Shown: positions 4,961-55,379, numbered from the whole stretch's first letter. The stretch: DNA of 63,995 bases, filler included, from Gonapodya sp. JEL0774 (GCA_027604505.1; 7 parts of 7 records of this genome joined end to end with filler, not necessarily neighbours in it), one strand, 5' to 3'. The notes: generated from the letters alone by a model not told the origin. Numbers and translations are program-made.

Positions 4961-5782
4961 TTCTGGGGCAGTCATGGAGTGTCTTGTGTTGCATTACTAA
5001 TTGAAACAACCCATGATTTAGAAATAGTGATTACTCTACTACTAACTATGCTCGCATGAAATCCAAAACATCGTGCACTGACGATGTGGAAGCGTGCTGA
5101 GGTCAAGTGCACCATGACCTTTGAAGCCCATTGAAACTGTCCCAGTCATCTTCGTTTCCGGTACCACGCTCTCAACCGTCTCTCCGGCGGGAAACTCAAC
5201 CGTGCATTCTCACATTCTCACGTTGTGTTTGCTTTTGGCGTTTGCTGTATCCGACACGTCGGCGTTGTTGTTCCAATCGACTGGCCACGCAAGCGTGGTT
5301 GAGTCAGCGGGCGCTGTTCCATTGAGTGTTTCAATCGTATCTAACGAACTGCGAATGTTTTAACCTGGCTGGACACGCCGCTGCCTGCTGCCGCTTGTTG
5401 CCCTCGTCAGAACGCTTTTGGGTCCACGCCATGACGTCCGCCTTGAGTGACCAAACATCCGAAGCTTGCTTGTTTTCAGTCGAAACTTGAATAGTTTCAC
5501 CTACGACGGAATTGCTCGATGGATTCTTGCAACTGCTGCCCTCTTCCAAACCCTTCGCCGCCTTCGCAGATCGGCGTTTGATCAACGTTGGTTCAATGGC
5601 TCACAAGACACCTTGGAGAACCCATGAGTCCATCATTCTCTGATTTACTTTTCGCACCCGGCCCGCTTCTAATGTCCTCTTCTGTACTAGAAAGTTTCGG
5701 ATCAACCAACTCTGAACTTGGCGCTCCCGGGGGTTTACAATTCATGACACACATCCCCTCCAATCCCTTTCTGAACTTTGGG

Positions 5783-6580
5783 CACTCTTGTCTCATAATT
5801 GATTTCAACTTTCTTGTGTGAGCAAGCCATTAACGCCACGGTCTCTGCGGTAGTGCGGGCTTGTCCAGCGAGGAAGTTGATATCGATACACCAAGTGTGC
5901 TGGGAATCTGTGTAGGCCAAGTTTCTTTTTATGAGCACTCTTGTCTCATTATCGATTTCAACTTTCTTGTGTGAACAAGCCATTATCGCCACCCTCTCTG
6001 CGACAGTGCGGGCTCGTCCAGCTGGGAAGTTGATATCGATACATCGATTGTGCTACTAGTCTGCGTGGGCCACATCTCTTTTATGGGTAATCTTGTCTCA
6101 TTATTGATTTCAACTTTCTTGATGAGCAAGCCATTAACGCCACGCTCCCTGCGGTTGTGCGGGCTCGTCCAGCTGGGAAGTTGACATCAATACGCCGAGT
6201 ATGCTAAATCTGAATGCCACACACTAGTCAAGACAGATCTGTTAGTGATTTGTCGAGGCTTCTTTATTCTCTTCTTGATCAGTATCGATTTCAACTATGG
6301 GTGAATGAACGACCACTGCGCTCTGTCTGACAGCGCAATTGTGACCGGCTGAGAAAAGGATATCATTGATGTCCGCGTGCTCGAATGCCGTCCACTTAAT
6401 GACCGTCTTTTGGGCGCTTTTTGATCTAATCTTACCGATACGTTGTTGAGCACCTTCATACCTCATCGACTTCCACTTTCGATTTCAACCCTTTCTTAGT
6501 CAAGCGAACCACCAACTACTCTCTGTGCGTCGTTGGGGGTTTGTCAAGCTGAGAAGGTGACATCGATAGAGCGAGTTGCG
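5783..6580. repeat. Tandem ~153-bp repeat: 3 close copies (5783-6200) plus 2 degenerate copies (~6285-6380, ~6480-6580)
   Basis: Recurring cttgtctcat..gatttcaactttcttg..caagccatta..gtgcgggct.gtccagc..ggaagttga.atc; the minus strand gives a 51-aa repeat (MACSHKKVEI..ETRV). Confidence 0.85.
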
Positions 6581-9208: not shown

Positions 9209-9308
9209 NNNNNNNNNNNNNNNNNNNNNNNNNNNNNNNNNNNNNNNNNNNNTTAATTAATTAANNNNNNNNNNNNNNNNNNNNNNNNNNNNNNNNNNNN
9301 NNNNNNNN
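9209..9308. other. Artificial scaffold linker
   Basis: 100-nt N-TTAATTAATTAA-N spacer (stops in all six frames). Confidence 0.97.
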
Positions 9309-18506: not shown

Positions 18507-18606
18507 NNNNNNNNNNNNNNNNNNNNNNNNNNNNNNNNNNNNNNNNNNNNTTAATTAATTAANNNNNNNNNNNNNNNNNNNNNNNNNNNNNNNNNNNNNN
18601 NNNNNN
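18507..18606. other. Artificial scaffold linker
   Basis: N-TTAATTAATTAA-N. Confidence 0.97.
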
Positions 18607-27741: not shown

Positions 27742-27841
27742 NNNNNNNNNNNNNNNNNNNNNNNNNNNNNNNNNNNNNNNNNNNNTTAATTAATTAANNN
27801 NNNNNNNNNNNNNNNNNNNNNNNNNNNNNNNNNNNNNNNNN
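27742..27841. other. Artificial scaffold linker
   Basis: N-TTAATTAATTAA-N. Confidence 0.97.
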
Positions 27842-29751
27842 CAATCCCTGCTGAAGTGACCCCCCTTGTTGCAGTTGAAGCATCGATCGTTGTTTGCATT
27901 GGCCCACTGACCCAACGTATTTCCTTGACCCCATTGTTGCGGTGGTGGAGGGGGTCCGTACGGTGGGTAGGGCGGGTGGGGATACGGGTACCACTGCTGA
28001 TACGGTGGGTAAGGCGGAGCAAATCCTTGCGGACCTGCTGGGGGATACGGCGGTGGATATGGGGCGTACGGCTGCTGTTGCAGGTAGGGGTTCGGTCCGC
28101 TCTCCGGGCGCCTCATGGGGCCACCTCCACCTCGTCCGCGGCCACCCCGGCTGTTTCCATTTCCACGACCACCACCATGGTGACCTCTTGCCGCCTGCCT
28201 CGCTTCCGGCTCGGTTGGCGGGGCCGCTGCGGGGCGCTTCATTCCGTCCGCCAACTCCATCTCCGTAAACTCCGGTGCCGGGCGCTTCTGCGGCAGGTCG
28301 GTGCGCGCCACTCCCACCCAACGACATCCTGCCGGTAAAGGCGGGAACCTTGATGTTGCATATGCCTGCAAGTCAGACACACGCTCCCGGAGCTCCTGTA
28401 TCTGGAGCTTGTCTCCTGGCTTCACCACCACGTTCAGCATCTGACGTGCCTCAGGGCCAGCGGCCTTAAGGAACATTGTGACGTACTTTTCATTGAGTTG
28501 CTCGCTCGTCATTCTGCTACGGGGCGTTGTGTACGCCTGCAACCGCCGCACGTCCGCCATGTGCTGCTCCAACGTCGCAGACGCTGTGTCTGCGGTGCAC
28601 AACCCGTCCACACACACCACTGCCCAGTTTGCATTGTCCACAACTTGCTGCGCCTCCTCCCGTAGAGCGTCTGTCACTACCATGGTGTAGTACCACCCGA
28701 AGAAACTGTCCAGATCATCAACTGGTGGGTAGTTGAGGACCCTGGCGTCCCAGAGACGGTGGGTCGGGGGCAGCGTGCCCGGTTGTTTTGTGTTGCCCCA
28801 CGCTTTGTTGAGCGACTCCGTGAGCGCGAGTGCGCACCAGTTCACTGCGTCCGGTCCGTCTGGCACACCAGCCTGCTCCACACTACGACGCAAGCGCTCC
28901 ACCCAATCATGTGGGTCCTCCCCAACTCGTCTCTTCATTTCGCTACTCGGCGGTTTGTACGTTCGCTTCTGGAACGTCGGGAGGTCGGCGATGGTCGACC
29001 TCGGTTTCGGAACCACTGCAGGTGGTTGGGGCTTCTTCTCGTTTGCCAGCAGTGTGCTCGCTTTTTCGTTCGCCGTAAATCTCACTTCATTCGTACGGGG
29101 ACCCTTGTACCCCGCCGCCATTATCCTCGTGTCGAGATCGAACTGCAACTCACGCAACTCCTTCTCCTCCAACTGGTGTGTCAACTCCATCTCCTCCCGC
29201 CTTAGAGCCACGCGCTCCCTCATGTCCGCGACACGCGCGCGCAGCGACTCCGTTGTCTCGTCCACAGATGGTTTGCTCGCTGCAACGGGGTAGAGGCTCG
29301 CCGCACCCTGAGTCCCGGGGAGTTTGCGTGGCCGAAGGGGAGGCGTACTGGACGACGAAGAGGGAGGGGCGTTGTTGGGGAGCTTTCGTGCTTTCGGAGT
29401 TGCGGACGGTTTGTTTGTCGGCGAAGGGAGATGATCGGAAGCTGGTGGAGGACGATTTTGGGGTGTCGGGGTCCCATCGCCTGCTGCACTTGCCGGCTCC
29501 TTCGGGGTGATCGGACTGAAGCCCGGTGGTTTCGGACTTTCTTCGGTGTCGACGGGGCCTTTGCCTTTGACAGAGACAGCCGGGGAGTCGGCGACTGGGG
29601 CGCCAGAACCTTCGCCAGAAGGGGGATCGTCGATGCCAGGCCCTTTGGGGGCATCCTCGTCAAGCTCATCGAAGTCGACGACGTTGAATGGTTCAATGTT
29701 TGCCATTGAAGATGATAGAGGGAAGAGCGGATTCGATCGGTATTCGGACAC
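27842..29751 (-). CDS. gag: LTR-retrotransposon Gag-like protein, truncated at the scaffold edge just after the zinc knuckle
   Basis: Intronless ORF of >630 codons with coiled coil, capsid-like GEDPHDWVERL segment, RGG-rich stretch and CFNCNKGGHFSRD(C) CCHC knuckle. Confidence 0.8.
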
Positions 29752-29785
29752 AGGCCACAGCGGAGTGACAGGATGCGAGATGCTG

Positions 29786-29950
29786 CCGGCCGTCCCCCCA
29801 ATTGTGATGTCCCGTACTGGACCGGACTGGTAGATGTAGGACAGGGATCTGATGTATGTCTAGATCCTTTAATACATGTATGACTACCTACAGGCATCCC
29901 AGGAGCCCAGTACACCACAGTTCATCATAGACCATTTCAACTCTCTCCAC
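29786..29950 (-). mobile_element. 3' end of a 5' LTR (...ACATCACA, ending at 29803) followed by a primer-binding site TGGGGGGACGGCCGG (29800-29786); distal LTR boundary not fixed
   Basis: Minus strand reads ...attaaa...gggacatcaca-at-tggggggacggccgg, ~50 nt upstream of the gag ORF. Confidence 0.6.
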
Positions 29951-31387: not shown

Positions 31388-34300
31388 TTGGTTGGATCTT
31401 GTGCTCGAAGATTTTTTGGTTTTGACGAACAGGGTAATGACCATACAGTTGGCAAAACAATCGATCCTCCCTCTTCAAACTCAATTGTCAGCAAGGAGGG
31501 ATCAATCGTAATGGATGAGGCACTACTTAACGGAATCTCGTTGAAGGGACAAGGAAGGCTGATTGACCGTACAAAGTACGACAATGCACCGGTACGTCAG
31601 GACATGCGTTTACTCATTTTTTATGGATGGATGGCAAAATTTTCTTGTTGGCTCTGATGTCAACACCCAGGGTGTGCGGGACGAGACGGGCTTCAGTGCC
31701 GTGACTGGAATGGTCCTGGGAGCGCACGCAGTGGACAAACACCGGGATGAGGTAGAAGAACACGTGTGCGTAGCAAAAGTCTATTTGCCGTCCGACGAAA
31801 ATCATCTTGAGGTGAGATTGCATTTCTTTAGCGTGACCTTCTGAGGCTGAGTGGACAAACCCCATCACCTCCTAGAAATTGGAAAGTGCTCCATTTGAAC
31901 AGGAAGAACTCACTATTCTCAAAGAAATGAGTTTGATTACGGTGAATTGACAACCACTCTACTTCTGGTTTTGATATTTAATCCATTCGACGGTAATATA
32001 TGCACTCACAGGTTGTCACTGAGAGCTCAGGCGCATTGATCACTGACTTTTACCGAGAAAATCGTACATCTGCCTCAAATATCTGTGACTGGAACATGGA
32101 CAAAACGGATACTATAAGCATTGCGACAACTGAAGACTCACAGTTTCTGATAGGTTTATCCAGGCAGGATGCTAATATTGATCACAAATATGAAATGCGA
32201 GACAAACTTCCAGCCGTAGGTTTTACAACCTATTTGCCAATAACCATTTCTGATGAAGAGTTTCCGAACGACAAGGCTTATCACCGCTATTGTACAATCT
32301 GCCAAGATTCAACGTGCATGGCAAGTGAGGTGAACATTGGAACTTGCACATCCGGAGAATTCAGCCAGGGAATGCACTCCGTGACTACAAGGGACTTGAA
32401 GACGAATGCCGCAAATGTGAGTGAATGGATTGAGATTGCCAGGAGAGCCACATCTGAACGTGATTCCATATGCATCAAGGACTCCGATATCGCATACAAC
32501 ATCAGAAAGAGTGAGGTACACCTGAGTTGTTGGTGCTTGCTACCGGTCGGACAGACATGTAGGGTTGATTGTTCACATCTTTATAGGTGCCGATGGAAGA
32601 CACGGAAAGTTTGTACAAGGCAGAACATCGTATTCTGATGGGAGATGCCATTTTAGAGAAGGTTGGTGTTTGTTTGCTCGCTTACTCCAGCCAACCACCA
32701 TGCATAAATTTTGCGAATCTGATGCCAAAGATGACCACAATCACCGTGGACCATGAACTGGGCACGTCTAGTTGCTCAAGTAGTAGCAGGGACAATACTG
32801 GGTCTGAGGAGGGCTTATTGTATATTTCGGAGCGCACAGTTCTCGCTGACAAAGACATTGAGGTGTCCACGCGCGTTATCTCCGACAGTAATTGTGAGGG
32901 AACTCAAGAAACTCTTAAGGTAAGTCTTGCCTCAGATTGACTACCCTCTAATTTGAATGCAAGTGGTTTTATTATGAAGTCACAGGATCTTTCGATACAA
33001 AATTCGGGGTATTCAGTTATGATCGGCATGAACTCAGAGTACGCATATGTTCTAAATAACCCTTCTATTTTAGCCACAAGTACTCTCAATCAGACGCAGA
33101 GAATTGCTAAACAAATTATGGAAGCAAATGAATCAGGCAATCAGATAACTGCAGGCTTTGATTGCTATGATTCTTTCTTCGAGGAATTCAAGACATCGTA
33201 TAGTACTATTCAAGAACTATTCCCTCAATACAAAGGCTTCATACCCATGAAGGGTGGCGGGCAAAGCTTGTACTTATGGAAGGCATCAGACAGGCGGACT
33301 GGGAAATTGGTAGTGATCAAGAATGCCACCGACTCTGTGATTAATCCTTTCCCAAACATTCGTGAAGCACGGTGGAGTACTATTTTTAATGGACTGGATG
33401 GCTGTGCTACAATCGTCAAGGTTGTCAGAACTCTGGATTCGTTGTTCATTGTCAGTTCCTACACTGGCGAATTCAATGCAATCACCTTTGCCCAGCACCT
33501 TGGAAGACAGGCACGTAAATCTCCCCAAAGAATGGCAGAACAATTAATGAAGCTTGAGAGGCTCATGTATGACGCTATTGTCATTCTTCATCGAATCCAT
33601 GATCTTGGTGCAATCGTGTGCAATGTCAAGCCACAAAATATGGTGTTGGATGAGCGCAGAAACTTGACAATAATAGACTTTGGGATGATGATGCAGATGC
33701 GGCACAATGGCACAGTACATTATCACGGTGGATCACCTTCATACGCCGCTCCTGAGTGCAATACCGAGGACCCGATTGTAACACAAAAGGCTGATGTTTA
33801 CTCTCTTGGAATGACCTTCAGCCAGATCTTTTACAGTTTCTACCACCCTGATCAAGGCATCAGTCGAGCAGCAATTGTTACCAGAGATGGAAATTTGTTT
33901 TGCTGAACCAAGCTTCCATCATCAATGCAAGCACTTCTCCTTGAGCTGCTACAAGTTGATCCACGTCAGCACCCAAATATGAGTGATATTCTCTTGTCTG
34001 GTTGGGCACAAGAGGCTTGCCTCAAATATGGCTGGCCAGTCCCTGTGTTCTCTCAACATTCAATACTAGAAACCGCAGATACCTATATCGAGAATGAAGT
34101 GCGGAACTTTATGACACGCACACTCTGCTATACAGAGAATTCACTATCAATATCTCCTTATTCTTCTGGTGAACTTCAATTGACAATGATTGAGGGAGTA
34201 AATTTCTCTGGCAGTCATTTGAAGAAAACGTTACGAACAAGGCTACTGGAAGCTTTCGGATTCTCGGACTGGCTCAGACCAGTCAAACCTCGCTCCCAAA

Positions 34301-34482
34301 TCTTTGAAAGCACCTTTGACTACACAGTTTCTGCTAGAAATATGTACACCCACTTATGCAAGCAGTTTCAGCGTGGATATAATCCTTGCATCAATTTTGG
34401 AGCAGTGGGAGACCTCTTAATTTGGAGAAGGGCCGAAGAGTTCTCTAGTATATTCCTATTGGGAGGTACACTGAGCAGTTGA
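31388..34482 (+). pseudogene. Ser/Thr protein kinase-domain gene with large unknown N-terminal region, probably decayed; 5' limit approximate
   Basis: KGGGQSLY, VVIKN, IVCNVKPQN (HRD replaced by VCN), IIDFG, GGSPSYAAPE, ADVYSLG, DPRQHP; in-frame TGA at 33904-33906 with the kinase C-lobe continuing in the same frame. Confidence 0.7.
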
Positions 34483-36956: not shown

Positions 36957-37056
36957 NNNNNNNNNNNNNNNNNNNNNNNNNNNNNNNNNNNNNNNNNNNN
37001 TTAATTAATTAANNNNNNNNNNNNNNNNNNNNNNNNNNNNNNNNNNNNNNNNNNNN
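36957..37056. other. Artificial scaffold linker
   Basis: N-TTAATTAATTAA-N. Confidence 0.97.
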
Positions 37057-46158: not shown

Positions 46159-46258
46159 NNNNNNNNNNNNNNNNNNNNNNNNNNNNNNNNNNNNNNNNNN
46201 NNTTAATTAATTAANNNNNNNNNNNNNNNNNNNNNNNNNNNNNNNNNNNNNNNNNNNN
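46159..46258. other. Artificial scaffold linker
   Basis: N-TTAATTAATTAA-N. Confidence 0.97.
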
Positions 46259-46455
46259 GAGTGTTTTTTGTGCAGAATGGTGGAGCGGTGAAGGCGGGCA
46301 GGGTGGGAGTCTGACGAGCGATCGTCGGACGAGTCGGAGGACGATATAAGGATGGGATCGGGAATGGAAGTCGGTGGAGCGAAGGAGGAGGAGAGGGCGG
46401 GTTGCAGTTGGAGTGCAGGAGAGGGAGGGGCGGGAGGTCTGTCGAAATGGGACAT
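46259..46455 (-). CDS. 5' start of an unidentified Pro/Ser-rich protein, truncated by scaffold edge
   Basis: ATG at 46455, MSHFDRPPAPPSP..., open to the linker. Confidence 0.35.
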
Positions 46456-49004
46456 GAAGTTGGAGTTGGATGTAGCGTGGGTATGACGTGTATAAAGAAT
46501 ATAGAGAGTGTTGGGGTGTTCAGATTGGACTGAATTGGAGTTGAGATGAATCGGGTGAGTTCAACGTCAGTTCAACATGAGATTGCGAGTGGATTCACGA
46601 CCGCATACACAGCTGAAACTGCGTACGAGTGTGGAGGACTTGGAATCGGACTCTCCGTCCACCCAACATAAACAGTCACCACTTGTTCGTCTCCGAAACC
46701 GATTCCCAGCGTCTCCCGCTTTCGCCGCTGGCACGCAAAATTTTAATGCCCTCACTTGACGACATTCATCGGCCCATTCTCGGACATGCTGCTTCGGACG
46801 CTGACGTTACCCGCCGTCCCAATCAACGTGATCTCCACCCGCACAGGCGCCCTCCGTCTCCGTCGCCAGACACTCTGCCCATGTTCCCCCCTGCTCACCT
46901 TCCCGGGTGTCCTGTCCGTTATGCTCGACCCCTGTGTCTGCTTCTATACTCCGCAAAACAGGGTTGACGTGATGGGTTTCTGTCGGGGTTTGAGCATCCA
47001 AGATCCACAGATCCATTGATCCACCGCCCTCCAAGGCCTCCTACCCTGCTGCCCTGCACACCCTGAACACACGAATCGGACACTTTTTCATTTCTTTTCC
47101 TGCGTTTCGAGTGCTCAAACTGTCTCTGTTCTACTTAATCTGGTAGTTTCTGCCTTTCGATGGAGCCGATCAGCGCCAGAACGAGTTCTGCATTCTCATC
47201 TCCTCCACATACGGAGAACGGAAAAGAGATCTCGAATCTCATTCAGCGTCCCATTACCCCACGTCTTTATTTTCTGCATTCCTGCCCCCGTTTGCTCTTC
47301 TTGTCGCTCTCCGTTCATTCCGCCCCATCCCACACCCCTTAGACCCCTGGGAACCGACCAAGCTCCCCTTGGGACAAACCTAAACAGCATTTTGCATGAA
47401 CCATCATGATTCAACAGAGTCGCACCAACTCCGCAAGTTTTCACGATATCATCACACCGAAAGTTCGATTTTATGCGCATTCTTTCTCGTTCGTGTTTGA
47501 GAGAATTTGAAATGGTCCGATCGCTTGTGCCAGATAGAGCACCCTGTGTGTCTCTTCCCATCGGATCAAAACGGAGCACCAAAACCTGAGCGCTCAGTTG
47601 GGATGGAATCGAGTCCGGAATATTCCGGTTTGGTTCCAAAGAGTTTTCTCCTGTGCCGCCCATTCCGCTCTTCTCTTCCTCCAGCCTTTCCACAACATCC
47701 TATGCTTTGTACGAACACTCTTTCTCCCGCTCAAACAGAGTAATCAACCTGCCATAACAGGAGATTACGTGGAGATGCTATACCATACCGTCTTTACTAG
47801 ACGTACCGCTACTCCTGCTTCGATTGGTGCCGTATGGAAGAGTTGTAGTCGTACAACAACTGCATGTAGTCATAGAAGGTACTCAGCGTAATCCAATACA
47901 TTGCCGTGACCGCAACTTGGTGCGCGCTGAACGATGAACGAGAAGAAGATGTGCATTTGGCTTATTCACATCGTTCCCGAGGGCAAATGATGTACTTCAC
48001 GATCGGTCCGGCAAAATGGCCATCCCCATATTGGTCGGCACTCTGGAACAAATTCCACCGTAAAGTTTAATCATGTAGTAAAGTACTCGGTGTAAAAACT
48101 ATCCCGACTGCCACAGCGTGCAGTTGTCGTAATAATATGAGGACTCAGCTGTTCACCTTGCCTTGAGAGAATATACTGTCACAACTGTCATACGGAAGGA
48201 AACGTAAACGCAAGCACACACGAAGCTTGAATGAATCTTGTGTGGGACTTGAGTACTGTTGAAGATGTCCATTCTCTTTTGTCCACCTGAAAGGACACCG
48301 TGACATGGCATGTGTGGCCAACCACATTTGACCCAGCAACCCAGTCCCCTATATCCAATTCCAATTCCCACTCCATCAACCCTCGCCCGCTTTCCTTCTC
48401 TCCTCCCCATTGTATCCCTCGTCGACTCCTTGTCATGATTGCTTCCTCCTCGTTCCTGCGACTCGCTCATTCTCCTGAACTTTGTTTCCATCCAAACAAA
48501 ACCGAGCGCGAGTAATGAGCTTTCGCGGGCTTAGGGGCAGTTGCGACGTCAATATATTATCTTCAATCACTCAGTCGCTGTGCACTACTGTGGTCACTAC
48601 TGCTGCACTCTTGCCCTACGCTCCAAGTCCAATTGCTCACTACATAACTCCACAACCAGGAACGCTAGAGAGATCATTCAAGTACCAAAACGCATCTACT
48701 CTTCAAGACAGTTACAATGCGCCTATCGGCGTCTTTAGATCACAGTCTGTTGTTGAGCTATTCAACATCCAAACTCCACCGTCCCCCCTCCCCTACATCC
48801 TTTTTTTACCCTGCCCCAAGAACATTTTGTTTTGACATATTTTCGCTTTGCCGCTTACGTGTTTCTTTTCTGGACAGCCCTGTTATTTCATGTTTCCTTA
48901 CATATCTGTACGTACCCTCTAGACCCAACACGAACTTCTCCCATTTATCTTTTGCTCTCAATGGTGTATGAGGATGTATTGATAATTCTACATGTATATT
49001 TACT

Positions 49005-52000
49005 TCACTCATCCTTTGCCTGTACATTGACGTAGTATTTTTCAATGAAGCGTCGAGTTCGAGGGGTTAGGCAGGAAGACCTACGTGCTACTCTCTTCCC
49101 CTTGCGGTCCGATGCCCCCTCTTCTATATTGTCCTCAGTGTTGCCCTTGTCTCGTAAACGCTTTGCAGAGCGAGTCTCGATGACACCAGTCTTGAGTGGG
49201 GTTGCCGATTGACGAGGTGTGGGTGGTCTCAACTTGAGGCGTGGAGGGTGAATGTTCTCTTTACCTGACCACACATCTATAGACTTCAAGGTAGTGTAGT
49301 CAATGTACCTAAATGACAAAGTTTACAAGCAGTTCGTAGGATGAAAGAGTTGAAAGCTTACTTAGCAGCCAGAGACCCCTTCTCTTCAACAAACGTTTGA
49401 TGCAGCGACATAAGGCGTGTCAAAGCAGATCCAGCTACATCAGTGAGGGATTTAATCCCGATGTACTTGCAATTGGTCAACAGGGCAGCAACTCCAAATC
49501 CTGCTGCTCCACAACCGAGGTCAATGATGAGCTCTTCCTTTTTGGTAAGCTGGTTGAGGACGTAGGCAGCGGTGGTGATGGGCACTTGCATGTCAGGGTC
49601 GCCCTATAAAATGAAGATGGGAGTAAGTTCTATGATGACTGACAAAACACAAAACTCACCGCCAATCTCAAAGAATCATCCATTCCTTTGGAGGGAGGGA
49701 GCTGACCCACAAATGGTGCCTCCACTTTAAAGCTAGTTGCGCTTTGCAGAAAGCATTGCGCAACCACGAAGTAATGGAGTTTCTTCTTCTTGTTATCCAC
49801 CCATGCCGCAATGTCATCCGCAAAGAAGATTTTGCGGTTCTCGTACTCCAACTCGGAGAGGAAAACCTTCTGTGCCTCCGATAACGTGATCCACTTGGAA
49901 GTGTGCTGGAAGGGTACCAACCATATCTCAGTATTGTATAGGCAGTTTGTAAACATGAGACTCACCAGAACAATCCAACCTGTGCCAACTGCAAGTTTTC
50001 CCGCAAGGTCCAAGGCTGGCTTCACCTCGGACCCCACTCGGTCCAGATCAACCAGAACCATGGAGGCACTATTGAGGTGGGCGTGTAGAGGTTCGACGTT
50101 GTCACCAGCCGAATGTATTGGTGCACGAAGAATGACGGTCGGTGCGGGCTTGACCAATTCAAAAGGCATACAGAGTGGTGCCCTTGAAACCCAATTTGTG
50201 TCAAGAAATCAACGGTGAGAAGGCAGCATATGATAAATGACTTGCCTCGAGCTTTTGTCATCGTCTTTGTCGACCTTATCTCCGGATAGTTTTGACTTCG
50301 ATACGGAGGAGGCGTTTTTCTTGCGGGATTTGGTGGGCCCATCCATGTCCATATCCACACTGGCATCATCGTTGTCATCATCGGATTTCACCACCTGTAT
50401 GCCATCGTCGCCCTCTCGTCATCTACAATTTCTGGAGCACCTCCAAGCGCCATCTCATCATGAACTGTTGTTTCCTTGGGTTGGACACAAATGTGAGGGC
50501 AGGCTGGAGGGGAGACATCTTCGTTGAGGTCTGTGATCTCCTGCGCAGGAGGTTCCTTTGATGGTGATGGATTTTTTGCTGCTTCTATTGCGGCTCTGAG
50601 TTGATCAGGATTGTCGTCATACATCCCTATGAAGTGAAAAGTGTACGTTAGGTTTAAGTAGGAAAACTTAATGAAAGGTACGCACCATTCTCAATCTCCC
50701 CGAAAAGCCGGTCGAATTGCACTTGTGGAAGGCGTTCCGCGAGGACCAACTTGGTGTTCTCCAACGTCTCACGAAGGGCTTTCCTGCGCGTAAAGATTTC
50801 CAACCATGCTCTGGCTTGGGCCTCCGTCACACGGGAAGGTTGGCTGAGGAGGTAGTCTAGGTATTTGTGCTGGCAGCAAACAACTTACTGGTGTGAACTC
50901 TCATAAACAATTGCATTATTCACGTACCTGATCTTCCTCAGTCTTCAGCTCCCTTGTGGCAAAATTGGCGTGCATATTAATGAAACTGAGGAGACCAGTA
51001 TGGCGATGGTCGTAGATGCTGTTTTTGACCTAGTCGGATGATGATCTAGAATCAGTACGTGAGCGGAACAAATCATCAATTGCATAACGCACTGAATCAA
51101 AGAAATTCACGATCACCATGAGATTTCGAAGTGTGTTGACTTCTGTCCATTTCTCTCCTACAGCTCCTGTGTTTGGGAGGAGCTTTGCGATTGTGACAGG
51201 CTGAACGCTGTCCCGTTTGGTCCCAGGATTCCTTGCAATGTATGCATCGATCTTGTCTGACACATACTTCACCTGGTCAAACACATCCATAGCAATAGAG
51301 TGGCCATCTAAGTTGTTTGAGAGGAAGGCAAGCTTGCAAAGGACATCTGCTGGAGTGTCCCACTAAGGTAGAGATGTGAAGGTAACGTTTGTCGCATATG
51401 TGAGGTGAACAGTACACATACCCAGAGGGCTATAATCCATTGGTTGTGGCACTTTGAAGTGTCACCATCCTCTTCGTTTATCTTGACGGCCCCTTCCTGG
51501 CTGCATGTGCAAAACTTGACATTGACATCGAAACAAATCGCAAAATGTGGCAAGTACATACCGATGGAAACCATTAACAAGATCCGTTAGCTCGGTCTTT
51601 GCTTTCCGGAATAGCTCGCCAAGATTGGCGAATGCAGTACGCCCATAGTTCTTTTTCCACTCTGCCAGAAGAGGACGATTCTTCTCGGGACCATTGGTCC
51701 TCATGCGGCGCCTGATCCACGGTTGTATGTTAATCGTTCGTTCCATATAATTGCAAACACTAATACTCACACCAACTCTTTGTAAACAGGGTGCTTCTTC
51801 GACATCACGCGGATGTTTTTGAACTGCGATGTGTCAATCAACCGTGTTGGGATTTGGATACCTCAGTGAGCAGGCTCGGACCACGTCTCAATGTCATAGA
51901 AAGCGACTCGGCTACAAACAAAAACATTAGAATATATTCTGTTTTTATGTAACGATCCCTCACGATTCGATTCGACTACTTCCATGTCGGGGGTTTCACC

Positions 52001-52084
52001 GGGGTCTGTAACGTCTTCTGGTCCTCGACGCTTCTGGCGCATAGGTCCGTCTTGCGCAGGTTTGCGTTTAGGTGGCATTGGCAT
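49005..52084 (-). CDS. Multi-exon gene (probably slightly decayed): NLS-like start, ParB/Sulfiredoxin-like domain, helical region, acidic linker, beta-class N4C/N6A DNA methyltransferase-like domain, basic tail
   Basis: Manual splicing. Start MPMPPKRKP. ParB-like: IPTRLIDTSQFKNIR..KELVRRMRTNG..RPLLAEW..DLVNGFHRQEGA..LAFLSNNLD. MTase-like: IHSAGDNVEPL..NSASMVLVDLDR..LAVGTGWIVL and DPDMQVPITTAAYVLNQLTKKEELIIDLGCGAAGFGVAALLTNCKYIGIK..ALTRL. In-frame TGA at 51863-51865. Confidence 0.72.
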
Positions 52085-52255
52085 TTCTGCAGGGTGTAGA
52101 CTAGTTAGATTTTGGAACAAGACCCACGTAACTCATTCAATGCCACATCCTTCCTCCTTAGCGCTTCAGCAAACATGCTATTGCATGTTCTGTGCACTCC
52201 CTTGAGGATGTGACTTCATCTGCCGGACAAATTGATGCAAGATAACGAGAGACAA

Positions 52256-52842
52256 GAGTAGTCAAGTCGTCCGGCGGACGACTTCACGCTTGTGCAAGAA
52301 AGAGAGCGAGCGAGGTGTAATTTCGTCCGCTGGACGACTTAAAATTAGATAAGGAAAGTCGAGAGTAGTCAAGTTGTCCGTCAGACGACTTTTTCCACGA
52401 GGGGAGAAAGTCGTCCGCCAGACAACCTGACGCGTGAACCACAAAATCACCGAACCATGAGTAATTTGGTCCGCCGGACAACTTCAAACAAGAAAAAGAG
52501 AGTCTAGAGTAGTCAAGTCGTCCGTCAGACGACTCTTTCCACGAGGGGAGGAAGTCATCCGCCGGACGACCTGATGAGAGAACCACAAAATCACCAAACC
52601 ATGAGTAATTTCGTCCGCCGGACGACTTCAAACAAGAAAAAGAGAGTCGAGAGTAGTCAAGTTGTCTGTCGGACGACTTTTTCCATGAGGGGAGAAAGTC
52701 GTCCGCCAGACGACCTGATGCGAGAACCACAAAATCACCGAACCAGGAATAATTTTGTCCACCGGACGACTTCAAACAAGAAAAACAGAGTCAAGAGTAG
52801 TCAAGTCGTCTGTCGGACAACTTTTTCCACGAGTGGAGAAAG
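52256..52842. repeat. Higher-order tandem repeat with a 144-bp unit (~3.5 copies plus a partial), each unit carrying three AAGTCGTCC-NNN-GGACGACTT-like palindromes
   Basis: gagtagtcaagt anchors at about 52363, 52507, 52651 and 52795; palindrome spacing 37/56/51 bp. Confidence 0.92.
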
Positions 52843-53287
52843 TAAAAGTCGTCCACCGGACGACTTGATGCTTCACAGAGAGTTCCGCAGTTATGGTAGA
52901 AAGTTGTCCAGCAGACGACTTGGCACTTCCCTGAGAGTATCAGAAAACACGCGAGAAAATTGTCCGGTGGACGACTTGGCGCTTGACTGAGAGTATTATC
53001 AGTGATTGTAGAAAATTGTTTGGCAGACGACTTGATACTTGACATACAGTTCCGCACCGACAGTAGAAAATCGTCCGGCGGATGACTTGGCGCTTGACAT
53101 ACAGTTCCGTTGTGACAAGAGAAAATCGTCCAGCAGACGACTTGATTCTTGACGGAGACAAAGAGAAGCAGCAAGAGAAAATTGTCTGGCAGACGACTTG
53201 ATGCTTGACGCAACGACGATAGAAAATCGTCCAGCAGACGACTTGATGCATGACTGAGAGAGTCTGAGAGCGTAGGGCAGACGACTT
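52843..53287. repeat. Repeat-spacer array: 8 copies of a ~34-bp repeat (AGAAAATCGTCCRGCRGACGACTTGRYRCTTGAC) with 21-22-nt variable spacers (one of 11 nt)
   Basis: Repeat starts at about 52843, 52898, 52954, 53010, 53065, 53120, 53176 and 53221; half copy near 53276. Confidence 0.9.
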
Positions 53288-53550
53288 CTACTGTGCATGA
53301 GGCGTTTCCCTGTTCCCATCGTCCTGGCCTGACAGCCCTGCCTGATATCCTCATCAGTGCTCACCTTATCTTCGCAATCCCTGTCCCTTGTTATGTTTAT
53401 CGAGTTCTTTTCTCTTAAGACAATTGTCCAAAGTAGGCACTTTCAGTGTGGCCCTGTTGTGTAGGGTGTCATTTAGGATGCCATTTTTGTTTTCACCATT
53501 CGGTGGCTTTGGTGAATCTTGCAGCAGGGTTCAATCACCTCAACAACAAA

Positions 53551-55279
53551 ATGGGAGATCCCATCACTCTTGTGAACGAATTTCAACCAAACAAGACTCA
53601 CTTCTTCCACAAAACATCTTTCATCGTCCCTGATTTGCAGGAGCTGTTTAGACTTCAGGGAAACCTGTTGGACATCTACCTCTTACCAAAATCAGCACCC
53701 AATCAAACCATTTTGACGAGGAATGGTCGATTTGAACTCATCGCAGACAAAGAATACATTGTTGGTGGAGATCCAACGGAATCTTTGTTTAAGAACATAC
53801 TTGAAACAGTCACCTCGAACCTCATCGTGGTATTTCCCCCATCCGAGGATGTCACGCGTACTACGCCTGTCGCCAGCAACAAAAATGCTGAACACGTGTA
53901 AGACAATGAGACGGAAGATGCAATCGATGACTATCTTAATAAACATTCCGAGATTGAACTCTATCTATTGAATAACTGTATCCCCAAAGCACTACCGGTT
54001 TATTGCAAAGGGAATGTGAACAAATCACATCGAAAGGATTGGAAAAGAATGGTGAGTGATTCTTTGAAGCCGCGGTGTGTTTATCCCTAAAAGAGTCTGC
54101 ATTGCAGGTGAGGTCTTACTCAATCATAAACGACCGGCTGCATTGTCCGTAAGGACGGAACACCAATGCTTCTCTTTACATCAGCGGACAAAATCAACAG
54201 TGCAATTCATCATGTACACACGTCATCTGCGGTTGGTGGTCACTCTTCTTTGTGGCGCTTGTGGAGGAAACTCGTGATGAACTATTATGCCCGCGGACTC
54301 TTCTGGATCCTCGAAAAGACAATACTGACATGTGCGGTATGTATCCTGCAACAACCGCTACCATCTAGGGCGCCTTTGGTACCCATCATCACCTCCCAAC
54401 CAAATGAGTTGGTGAGTGACAACCCAGTAGCAGATGAGTTCTGCTGTGTTGTAATTCATTTTCATACCTTGCTTCAAGTGGGTGATAGACTACACAAAAT
54501 TTGGGCGCTTTTGGATTCTACATGGAGTTGACCACCTATCTAAAAAGGGATTCGCTAATGCTTTCCTCACAAAGGTACGTTTATTCTGCCATAAGAACTT
54601 TCAAATGGAGAAAGTTCTAACCTGATATGAAGCAATCAAAGAACGTAGTTGACTCAATCATGGAGTGGAGCAAGGAAGGCTGTATGCCCGATTCAACACT
54701 CTCTGATAACGGTGGCGAACTTGTTTCGAAGGCGTTCGAGAAACTCCACCAGCTCCATGGTATCAAGATCCGGCATGGCAGCCCCTACAAGCCTTCGACA
54801 CAAGGTGCCATCGAGAATCGCAATCGCTTTTTCAAGAGTCGTATTCGCAAAGTGTTGAAGGAGCTCAACATTCAAGAATCTACTTTGAGCCTTGAGCGTC
54901 TTCAAGACATCTTGCCAACTGTCAACAACACAATTGATCACGAGGTACATGGAACAACTAGTGCCGTGCCATATGAATTATTTTATGCAAAGACAGATCG
55001 GAACTTTTATGCTGTTCCAGGACAGGGTTAGTGTTCTCAGCATCCAAAAGTGAATGTAATCTCACATAACAAAATGGATATTGTCAGATCCACCTCCCGA
55101 TGTAGCGTACGACCCTGCCACCCATTCGAAAATGATGCTCAATGCTAAAAAGCACATGCAAAAAGTCGCCACTCGAGATCTTGCAAGGTAAGCACGCAAA
55201 ATTTAATTGCACTCTGTTGATCTAAATCTTCAAACCCCTTGCAACCAGGTCATTGGCAAATTTATCGCTATCTCCACCT
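53551..55279 (+). mobile_element. Intron-containing retroviral-type (Ginger/GIN/Gypsy-like) DDE integrase, decayed (stop at 53899-53901, frameshift near 54150), truncated by scaffold end
   Basis: HHCC: HHVHT..GGHSS..NYYARGL..TCAVC; PLVPIITSQPNEL; IDYT..VDHLSK; LSDNGGEL; HGSPYKPSTQGAIENRNR; HGTTSAVPYELFY; GT-AG introns at about 54052, 54412, 54574 and 55027. Confidence 0.88.
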
Positions 55280-55379
55280 NNNNNNNNNNNNNNNNNNNNN
55301 NNNNNNNNNNNNNNNNNNNNNNNTTAATTAATTAANNNNNNNNNNNNNNNNNNNNNNNNNNNNNNNNNNNNNNNNNNNN
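55280..55379. other. Artificial scaffold linker
   Basis: N-TTAATTAATTAA-N. Confidence 0.97.

Follow-up and report, generated by a model that had tools for sequence, protein, structure and literature searches.

A decayed, probably single mobile element of Gonapodya with an integrase gene, a divergent methyltransferase-like gene and a palindrome array between them

The question raised by the locus considered here, in DNA of the fungus Gonapodya sp. JEL0774 (GCA_027604505.1), is whether two genes pointing away from each other and the palindromes between them form one mobile element, and what the product of the non-transposase gene might do at these palindromes. The window, that is, the whole analyzed stretch of 63,995 nt, consists of seven contig pieces of about 9 kb each (9.2-9.0 kb, in order of falling length) connected by six identical artificial spacers N44-TTAATTAATTAA-N44, and pieces adjacent in the window are not adjacent in the genome. 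The locus occupies the piece 46259-55279 (9,021 bp) and comprises gene A on the minus strand, the palindrome array and an integrase gene on the plus strand. An earlier note on this DNA had placed it within one scaffold, which is correct for the locus, situated inside a single piece, and incorrect for the window with its seven N-spaced pieces. The anatomy described there (divergent intron-containing genes, an array of palindromes of about 1 kb between them, and disabling lesions in both genes) was confirmed, and the locus is a decayed, probably single mobile element with the following features.

49005..52084, minus strand: gene A, 12 exons, three lesions (exon model, database protein P0001, paralogues P0002-P0004)
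51093..51911, minus strand: predicted ParB-like domain and the following helix-turn-helix-like exon (Atlas features, motif order, exon-5 model)
49362..50182, minus strand: methyltransferase-like domain (hhalign, beta-class hidden Markov model, glocal alignment)
52213..53287, no strand: array of 22 imperfect 21-bp palindromes with four CpG each
52317..52843, no strand: left sub-array, a 144-bp higher-order repeat of three units (spacing 56/51/37), 3.7 copies
52846..53287, no strand: right sub-array, monomers of about 55 bp with other spacers and the same palindrome
53551..55279, plus strand: integrase-type transposase gene, truncated by the contig end (Pfam, IS481 model)
55280..55379, no strand: artificial spacer at the end of the contig piece; the right end of the element is missing

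Gene A encodes, in this order, a predicted ParB-like N-terminus, a helical region, an acidic linker, a beta-class N4/N6 methyltransferase-like domain and a basic tail, and is interrupted by 11 introns of 52-63 nt (10 GT-AG and one GC-AG). The protein P0001 maps onto the spliced gene in all its residues (724/724). Compared to the paralogue P0003, the window copy has frame changes at ~51890 and 50416 and an in-frame TGA at 51863-51865. Four records of gene A, all under one Gonapodya name, are located on contigs of 9,021, 2,500, 181,586 and 3,679 bp, the copies being 76-93% identical to P0003. Of the 26 changes found only in P0003, 7 are CpG transitions, whereas such transitions make up 119 of 4,777 possible non-synonymous changes (p = 3e-6); the window copy has 58 changes of its own, 14 of them CpG transitions. 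P0002 deviates from this trend, as none of its eight private changes is at a CpG, and it may be closest to the active form of the gene. With their lesions and CpG-biased changes, the copies behave as members of a repeat family and unlike a conserved host gene. Present in four records on four contigs, the minus-strand gene is not the single-copy host gene that the earlier note had named as a refutation of its reading.

A HMMER search against 1.84 billion representatives yielded six matches to gene A, namely two paralogues and four exon-sized metagenomic fragments (39-57% identity), with no named orthologue from another fungus among them; hence, distant relatives exist and are barely sampled. 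The metagenomic fragments (P0005-P0008) match exactly two gene A exons, the helical one and the one binding S-adenosylmethionine (SAM), which suggests related intron-containing genes in unsampled eukaryotes. None of four candidates in viral contigs contained gene A. Several other matches were discarded. A single hit of the exon-5 alignment to viral contigs (1 of 241, phage protein L001) and a single hit to metagenome contigs (1 of 103, L002, in gene-dense prokaryote-like DNA) were judged to be chance matches, the hits in prokaryote genomes (4 of 41) were three ordinary beta-class methyltransferases and one other methyltransferase, and a Pfam TNT match on P0003 (E = 0.036, 37 residues) was rejected as noise.

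The array between the genes agrees with the approximately 20 copies and the CpG-type decay noted earlier. Twenty units have at most five mismatches to AAGTCGTCCG-N-CGGACGACTT, and two units at the edges have six. With at most three mismatches allowed, 16 matches are found in the window, every one of them inside the array, while none of 100 window shuffles yields any. The array edges are 129 bp from the start of gene A and 264 bp from the start of the integrase gene, so the array occupies the likely shared promoter region. Just upstream of each start codon there is an apparent intron, at 52087-52150 on the minus strand (branch-like CTAAC, TGCAG acceptor) for gene A and at ~53434-53525 on the plus strand (GTAGGC...TTGCAG) for the integrase gene; with these introns, both transcription starts would fall at the array edges.

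The palindrome itself is more similar between parts of the array than the sequence around it. In particular, the left and right sub-arrays are 75% identical in the palindrome, and 24% and 41% identical in its flanks; across the sub-arrays and the three unit types of the 144-mer, the identity is 73-79% in the palindrome and 7-46% in the flanks. Since the palindrome is alike while the flanks diverge, the palindrome, not the spacer, was retained. Such retention is the pattern expected for a protein-binding site, and the array is considered here as a candidate operator array.

Substitutions C>T/G>A in the array affect 32 of 160 CpG positions and one of 60 other C/G positions (p = 2e-4), with two edge units and the first three positions of each unit excluded; with all units and positions included, the counts are 36/176 and 8/88. 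The p value is optimistic, as the units share history. The concentration of changes at CpG points to host cytosine methylation. At the same time, the array itself being CpG-decayed, it was not protected in the window copy, which weighs against a shielding role. The palindrome has no match in viral contigs or in any of 171 fetched loci; three single sites matching its 17-bp core in viral contigs were taken as chance.

The gene on the other side of the array encodes an integrase. It matches the IS481 model with E = 5e-10 and contains five GT-AG introns (56-67 nt) and two lesions, an in-frame TAA at 53899-53901 and a frame change near 54140-54150. An H2C2 finger is encoded at 54205-54342, preceded by a Y-P-Y-H stretch seen by eye, and the catalytic residues D (54488), D (54705) and E (54813) form a DD35E triad. 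Pfam scans of single exons gave rve (E = 2e-6) and Integrase_H2C2 (E = 2e-4), both below the curated cut-offs. No reverse transcriptase or RNase H was found in the scanned open reading frames (ORFs) of the 9-kb piece, in which the integrase gene is present only for 1.7 kb from its start codon. The introns argue against a retroelement, and a Ginger-like DNA transposon agrees with them as well as with the lack of a reverse transcriptase in the piece. The motifs DHLSK and HGSPYKPSTQGAIE presumably are Ginger2-like. By its H2C2 finger, DDE residues and introns, the gene is a putative Ginger member. The proposed Ginger type is in keeping with these features; no terminal inverted repeat (TIR) was found, and the right end is missing. 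The region 53551-53898 (plus strand) encodes an N-terminal integrase domain of about 116 amino acids (aa) with no Pfam or NCBIfam match and with a PHROG match at E = 0.044. The homologue search with integrase exon 4 gave none among 481 candidates, no integrase of this kind was among 16 candidates from viral contigs, and none of seven single-exon ORFs from the integrase gene and the left flank was present in the protein collection.

What could the product of gene A do? Its C-terminal half is the better defined one. A three-sequence profile of gene A aligned with methyltransferases by hhalign with 96% probability (E = 2e-9), a hidden Markov model (HMM) built from 85 beta-class methyltransferases matches P0002 (E = 9e-11), and the motif I half matches PHROG methyltransferase families (E = 2e-6) and NF010253. 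As judged from the sequence, the C-terminus is a homologue of beta-class (permuted) N4/N6 DNA methyltransferases with a SAM-binding motif I region, and the methyltransferase part of the proposed fusion stands. The motifs are GD (50098-50106), DLDR at the predicted DPPY position (50038-50055), and the SAM-binding DLGCG (49508-49522). The SAM-binding (D/E)LGCG and the following YIGI strand are retained in the metagenomic relatives at 44-57% identity.

The family-wide replacement of the predicted catalytic motif had been overlooked in the earlier note. In the glocal alignment the N-half is colinear with the family and DLDR is opposite the family DPPY. The position aligned with motif IV, (D/N/S)PP(Y/F), is occupied by DLDR in P0001, P0002 and P0003, all three copies covering this weakly aligned N-half, and no DPPY- or SPPY-like motif is visible elsewhere in these proteins. 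The presence of DLDR in all covering copies makes it a family trait and not a result of decay. A caveat is that the N-half alone is not significant (2 of 40 shuffles score higher), so the placement of DLDR is itself a prediction. The domain is likely a pseudo-enzyme retaining SAM binding.

The N-terminus of gene A is probably ParB-like, an estimate that was raised by published precedent. The ParB-like motifs are LVNGFHR (51564-51581; DGFHR in P0003) and AFLSNN (51312-51329), and the series ELVRRMRTNG, RPLL, LVDGFHR is colinear with the ParB motif order, the order being not significant. Atlas (language-model) features score 0.89-0.93, with phage clusters at 0.90-0.93, and the match at rank 2 is automatically named ParB/Sulfiredoxin; eight of 30 matches carry a Pfam family, seven of these being ParB_N and one DUF3723. 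DUF3723 is reported to be among the core cargo genes of Starship elements in fungi, and no mention of it together with ParB was found in the literature searched. For exon 5 alone, Atlas gave only unnamed clusters with low recognition. The AlphaFold model of full-length gene A is unusable, with a predicted local distance difference test (pLDDT) score of 32, while the exon-5 model has pLDDT 70.7. Its fold rows have Z of 4.3-5.7, below the noise level of the tool for helical domains; about 15 of the top 20 are what we take to be helix-turn-helix or winged-helix domains, and Foldseek found nothing in PDB or BFVD.

Several results weigh against the ParB assignment. Atlas scores of at least 0.9 also arise for 4-10 of 100 shuffled proteins, gene A has no ParB match in Pfam, NCBIfam or PHROGs HMMs, and the hhalign probability for ParB is 0.2%. 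In four ParB profile comparisons, 8, 9, 2 and 35 of 100 shuffles reach the real score. Moreover, no ParB structure was among the rows of the exon-5 fold searches. The ParB part of the proposed fusion is weakly favoured by Atlas features and motif order, while profile-profile tests remain at the level of shuffles.

As to whether gene A, the array and the integrase gene belong together, we consider one element to be rather probable. The mean intron sizes are 58 nt in gene A and 61 nt in the integrase gene, their CpG observed/expected ratios are 0.76 and 0.78, compared to 0.83-1.00 in the six other contig pieces, and the numbers of lesions are similar (three and two). The array spans the space between the two start codons, with the palindrome present in both its halves. 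Outside the array, no TIR-like inverted pair of 14 nt was found. Other observations speak against a single element: the three parts are linked at a single known locus, neither a TIR nor a target duplication was found and the right end is absent from the piece, and four of 25 control stretches are closer to gene A in trinucleotide composition than the integrase gene is. TGTTA at 48881, located 124 bp past the stop of gene A, agrees with the TGTNR end pattern of Ginger elements, which occurs at 21 sites in the 2.7-kb left flank.

Proteins combining ParB and methyltransferase domains are known from other mobile elements, and Iyer 2011 and Petroll 2025 are said to provide the precedent for such transposon proteins in algae. 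The element Sola1-1_Ec32 of the brown alga Ectocarpus carries a gene for ParB and N4/N6-methyltransferase opposite its transposase (PMC12477816), and this source also mentions similar proteins of green and red algae, such proteins being proposed to bind and modify their own element. Accordingly, the system is not undescribed in the sense of the earlier note. Gene A, with its predicted ParB-like domain, resembles the algal gene in being on the strand opposite a DDE transposase. The present locus differs in the fungal host, in an H2C2/DD35E integrase partner instead of the Sola transposase, in the replaced predicted catalytic motif and in the palindrome array between the genes. The statement that no Ginger element with this cargo has been described agrees with the literature searched, with subscription papers largely outside, in which neither an element of the Ginger type nor one from a fungus was found to carry such cargo or palindromes arrayed at its centre. 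As far as searched, the fungal host, the integrase partner, the replaced catalytic motif and the candidate operator array are new.

Elements of the Ginger type, bearing rve, are reported to be ubiquitous in fungi. According to PMC2836005, Ginger elements have TIRs of 40-300 bp, TGTNR ends and a 4-5-bp target duplication, and Ginger1 has the YPYY motif, the GPY/F motif and an OTU or Ulp1 C-terminal domain. As in Ginger1 and Ginger2/Tdd there, the integrase-type transposase of Gonapodya has H2C2 and DDE regions and introns, with no reverse transcriptase found nearby, and its Y-P-Y-H is at the place of the Ginger1 YPYY; typical elements encode a single transposase, and an extra N-terminal domain of about 116 aa, matching no family, is present here. 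Phage ParB-methyltransferase fusions of the same domain order were found in three of 80 fetched viral loci (L031, L041, L063). They share with gene A the succession of a ParB-like domain (predicted in gene A), acidic linker and beta-class N4/N6 methyltransferase, and differ in the retained DPPY, the lack of introns and a length of about 440 aa. A significant alignment is limited to the SAM-binding half. PMC4738411 describes ParB-terminase loci of phages, a ParB-HTH-fused Dam family in chlorophytes and chytrids from another group of methyltransferases, and DIRS1 elements in which the methyltransferase is inactive. In bacterial ParB-parS systems, as here, repeated palindromes adjoin a gene with ParB-like motifs, while here there is no ParA, the site is 21 bp instead of 16 bp, and DGFHR/NGFHR stands for the GERR box. 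The anti-silencing VANC proteins of Arabidopsis VANDAL elements target fast-evolving tandem repeats in non-coding parts of their own element (PMC5735166); the likeness is that of a transposon accessory protein with repeated target motifs, here candidate ones, inside the element, the protein being unrelated and the element of the Mutator type, so that the analogy is functional only. Further comparison literature comprised PMC5751038, PMC6839031, PMC6431247, PMC10799480 and two bioRxiv preprints.

On balance, we lean towards a decayed cut-and-paste transposon of the Ginger kind whose accessory ParB-like/methyltransferase-like protein would bind the palindromes between the genes and thereby regulate or shield the element. 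All three parts would move together, excised and inserted by the integrase via termini located outside the readable sequence. A two-fold symmetric dimer might recognize the 10-1-10 palindrome with its helix-turn-helix-like region, in the manner of ParB at parS. Without DPPY, the methyltransferase domain would be a SAM-binding or DNA-binding pseudo-enzyme that does not write N4-methylcytosine (4mC) or N6-methyladenine (6mA). Binding at the palindromes would control the shared promoter region of the element itself, and, by analogy with VANC, the occupied CpG-rich array could keep both promoters open against host silencing by 5-methylcytosine until the copy dies and decays.

A stronger version, in which a Ginger-type element took over a complete bacterial ParB-parS pair, appears unlikely: a clamp gated by cytidine triphosphate would load at the 22-site array and spread over both promoters, with the dead methyltransferase domain shielding CpG. 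If this were true, the ParB-methyltransferase cargo of eukaryotic transposons would have in this array its first visible cognate site. It is similarly improbable that two independent repeats, a gene A element and an integrase element, lie head to head or one within the other, and that the palindromes are subterminal sites of one of them to which its transposase binds. Transposase-bound subterminal repeat arrays are common in DNA transposons, and both the two unlike halves of the array and the linkage known from a single locus are compatible with such an arrangement, while the common palindrome of the two halves, the lack of a terminus-like inverted pair, the similar decay and intron style of the genes, and the opposite-strand pairing matching that of Sola1-1_Ec32 argue against it. 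A joint element may also extend further. The locus would then be a fragment of a giant transposon with more cargo or of an endogenous Polinton-like virus, which we regard as quite unlikely. Neither element end has been located in a contig piece of just 9 kb, the algal precedent is 21.5 kb long, and Polinton-like viruses, which often carry RVE integrases and methyltransferases, are reported in chytrid genomes. Gene A and the integrase gene contain 16 short spliceosomal introns, which are atypical of Polinton ORFs; none of 41 ORFs (at least 45 aa, 46259-49010) has a Pfam match better than E = 0.02, no DNA polymerase, capsid or packaging ATPase was found among the scanned ORFs of the 9-kb piece, and the viral-contig scans gave no relative.

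Somewhat more doubtful still is a single element whose methyltransferase is active by means of an atypical catalytic loop and deposits 4mC or 6mA on the array. The retained (D/E)LGCG and YIGI strand of the metagenomic relatives and the retained first Asp of motif IV would fit an enzyme, the motif may be misplaced by the weak N-half alignment, and the same activity was proposed for the algal proteins. DLDR in all three covering copies with no DPPY- or SPPY-like motif visible in P0001-P0003 speaks against this, and inactive methyltransferase domains in transposons have a precedent in DIRS1. Finally, gene A could be a small host gene family beside an unrelated integrase relic, or the join at the array an assembly error. 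Tandem arrays are indeed prone to mis-joins, while the array units are diverged enough for unique assembly; the frameshifts, stops and CpG-biased changes in the copies, as well as the six matches among 1.84 billion representatives with no named orthologue in another fungus, leave this very improbable.

Other features of the window are located in other pieces. A tandem repeat of 153 bp (2.8 copies, 84% matches) is at 5779-6206. An ORF of 689 aa at 27842-29859 (minus strand), at a piece edge, has a terminal CCHC zinc knuckle and resembles retrotransposon gag. Protein-kinase-like reading frames with a stop between them at 32941-34482 (minus strand), in an AT-richer piece, are possibly a decayed gene. 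The artificial spacers are listed below.

9209-9308, 18507-18606, 27742-27841, 36957-37056, 46159-46258, 55280-55379: artificial spacers, N44-TTAATTAATTAA-N44

Cargo of the ParB-methyltransferase type has been noticed in algal transposons, where binding to the own element was only proposed. Under the favoured reading, a Ginger-kind transposon with a protein acting at its own array, the pairing also exists in fungi and with another family of transposase, a distribution suggestive of repeated recruitment of such proteins. A more intact paralogue of the P0002/P0003 type is on record. As a concrete 21-bp candidate site lies beside gene A, the idea of binding and anti-silencing becomes directly testable.

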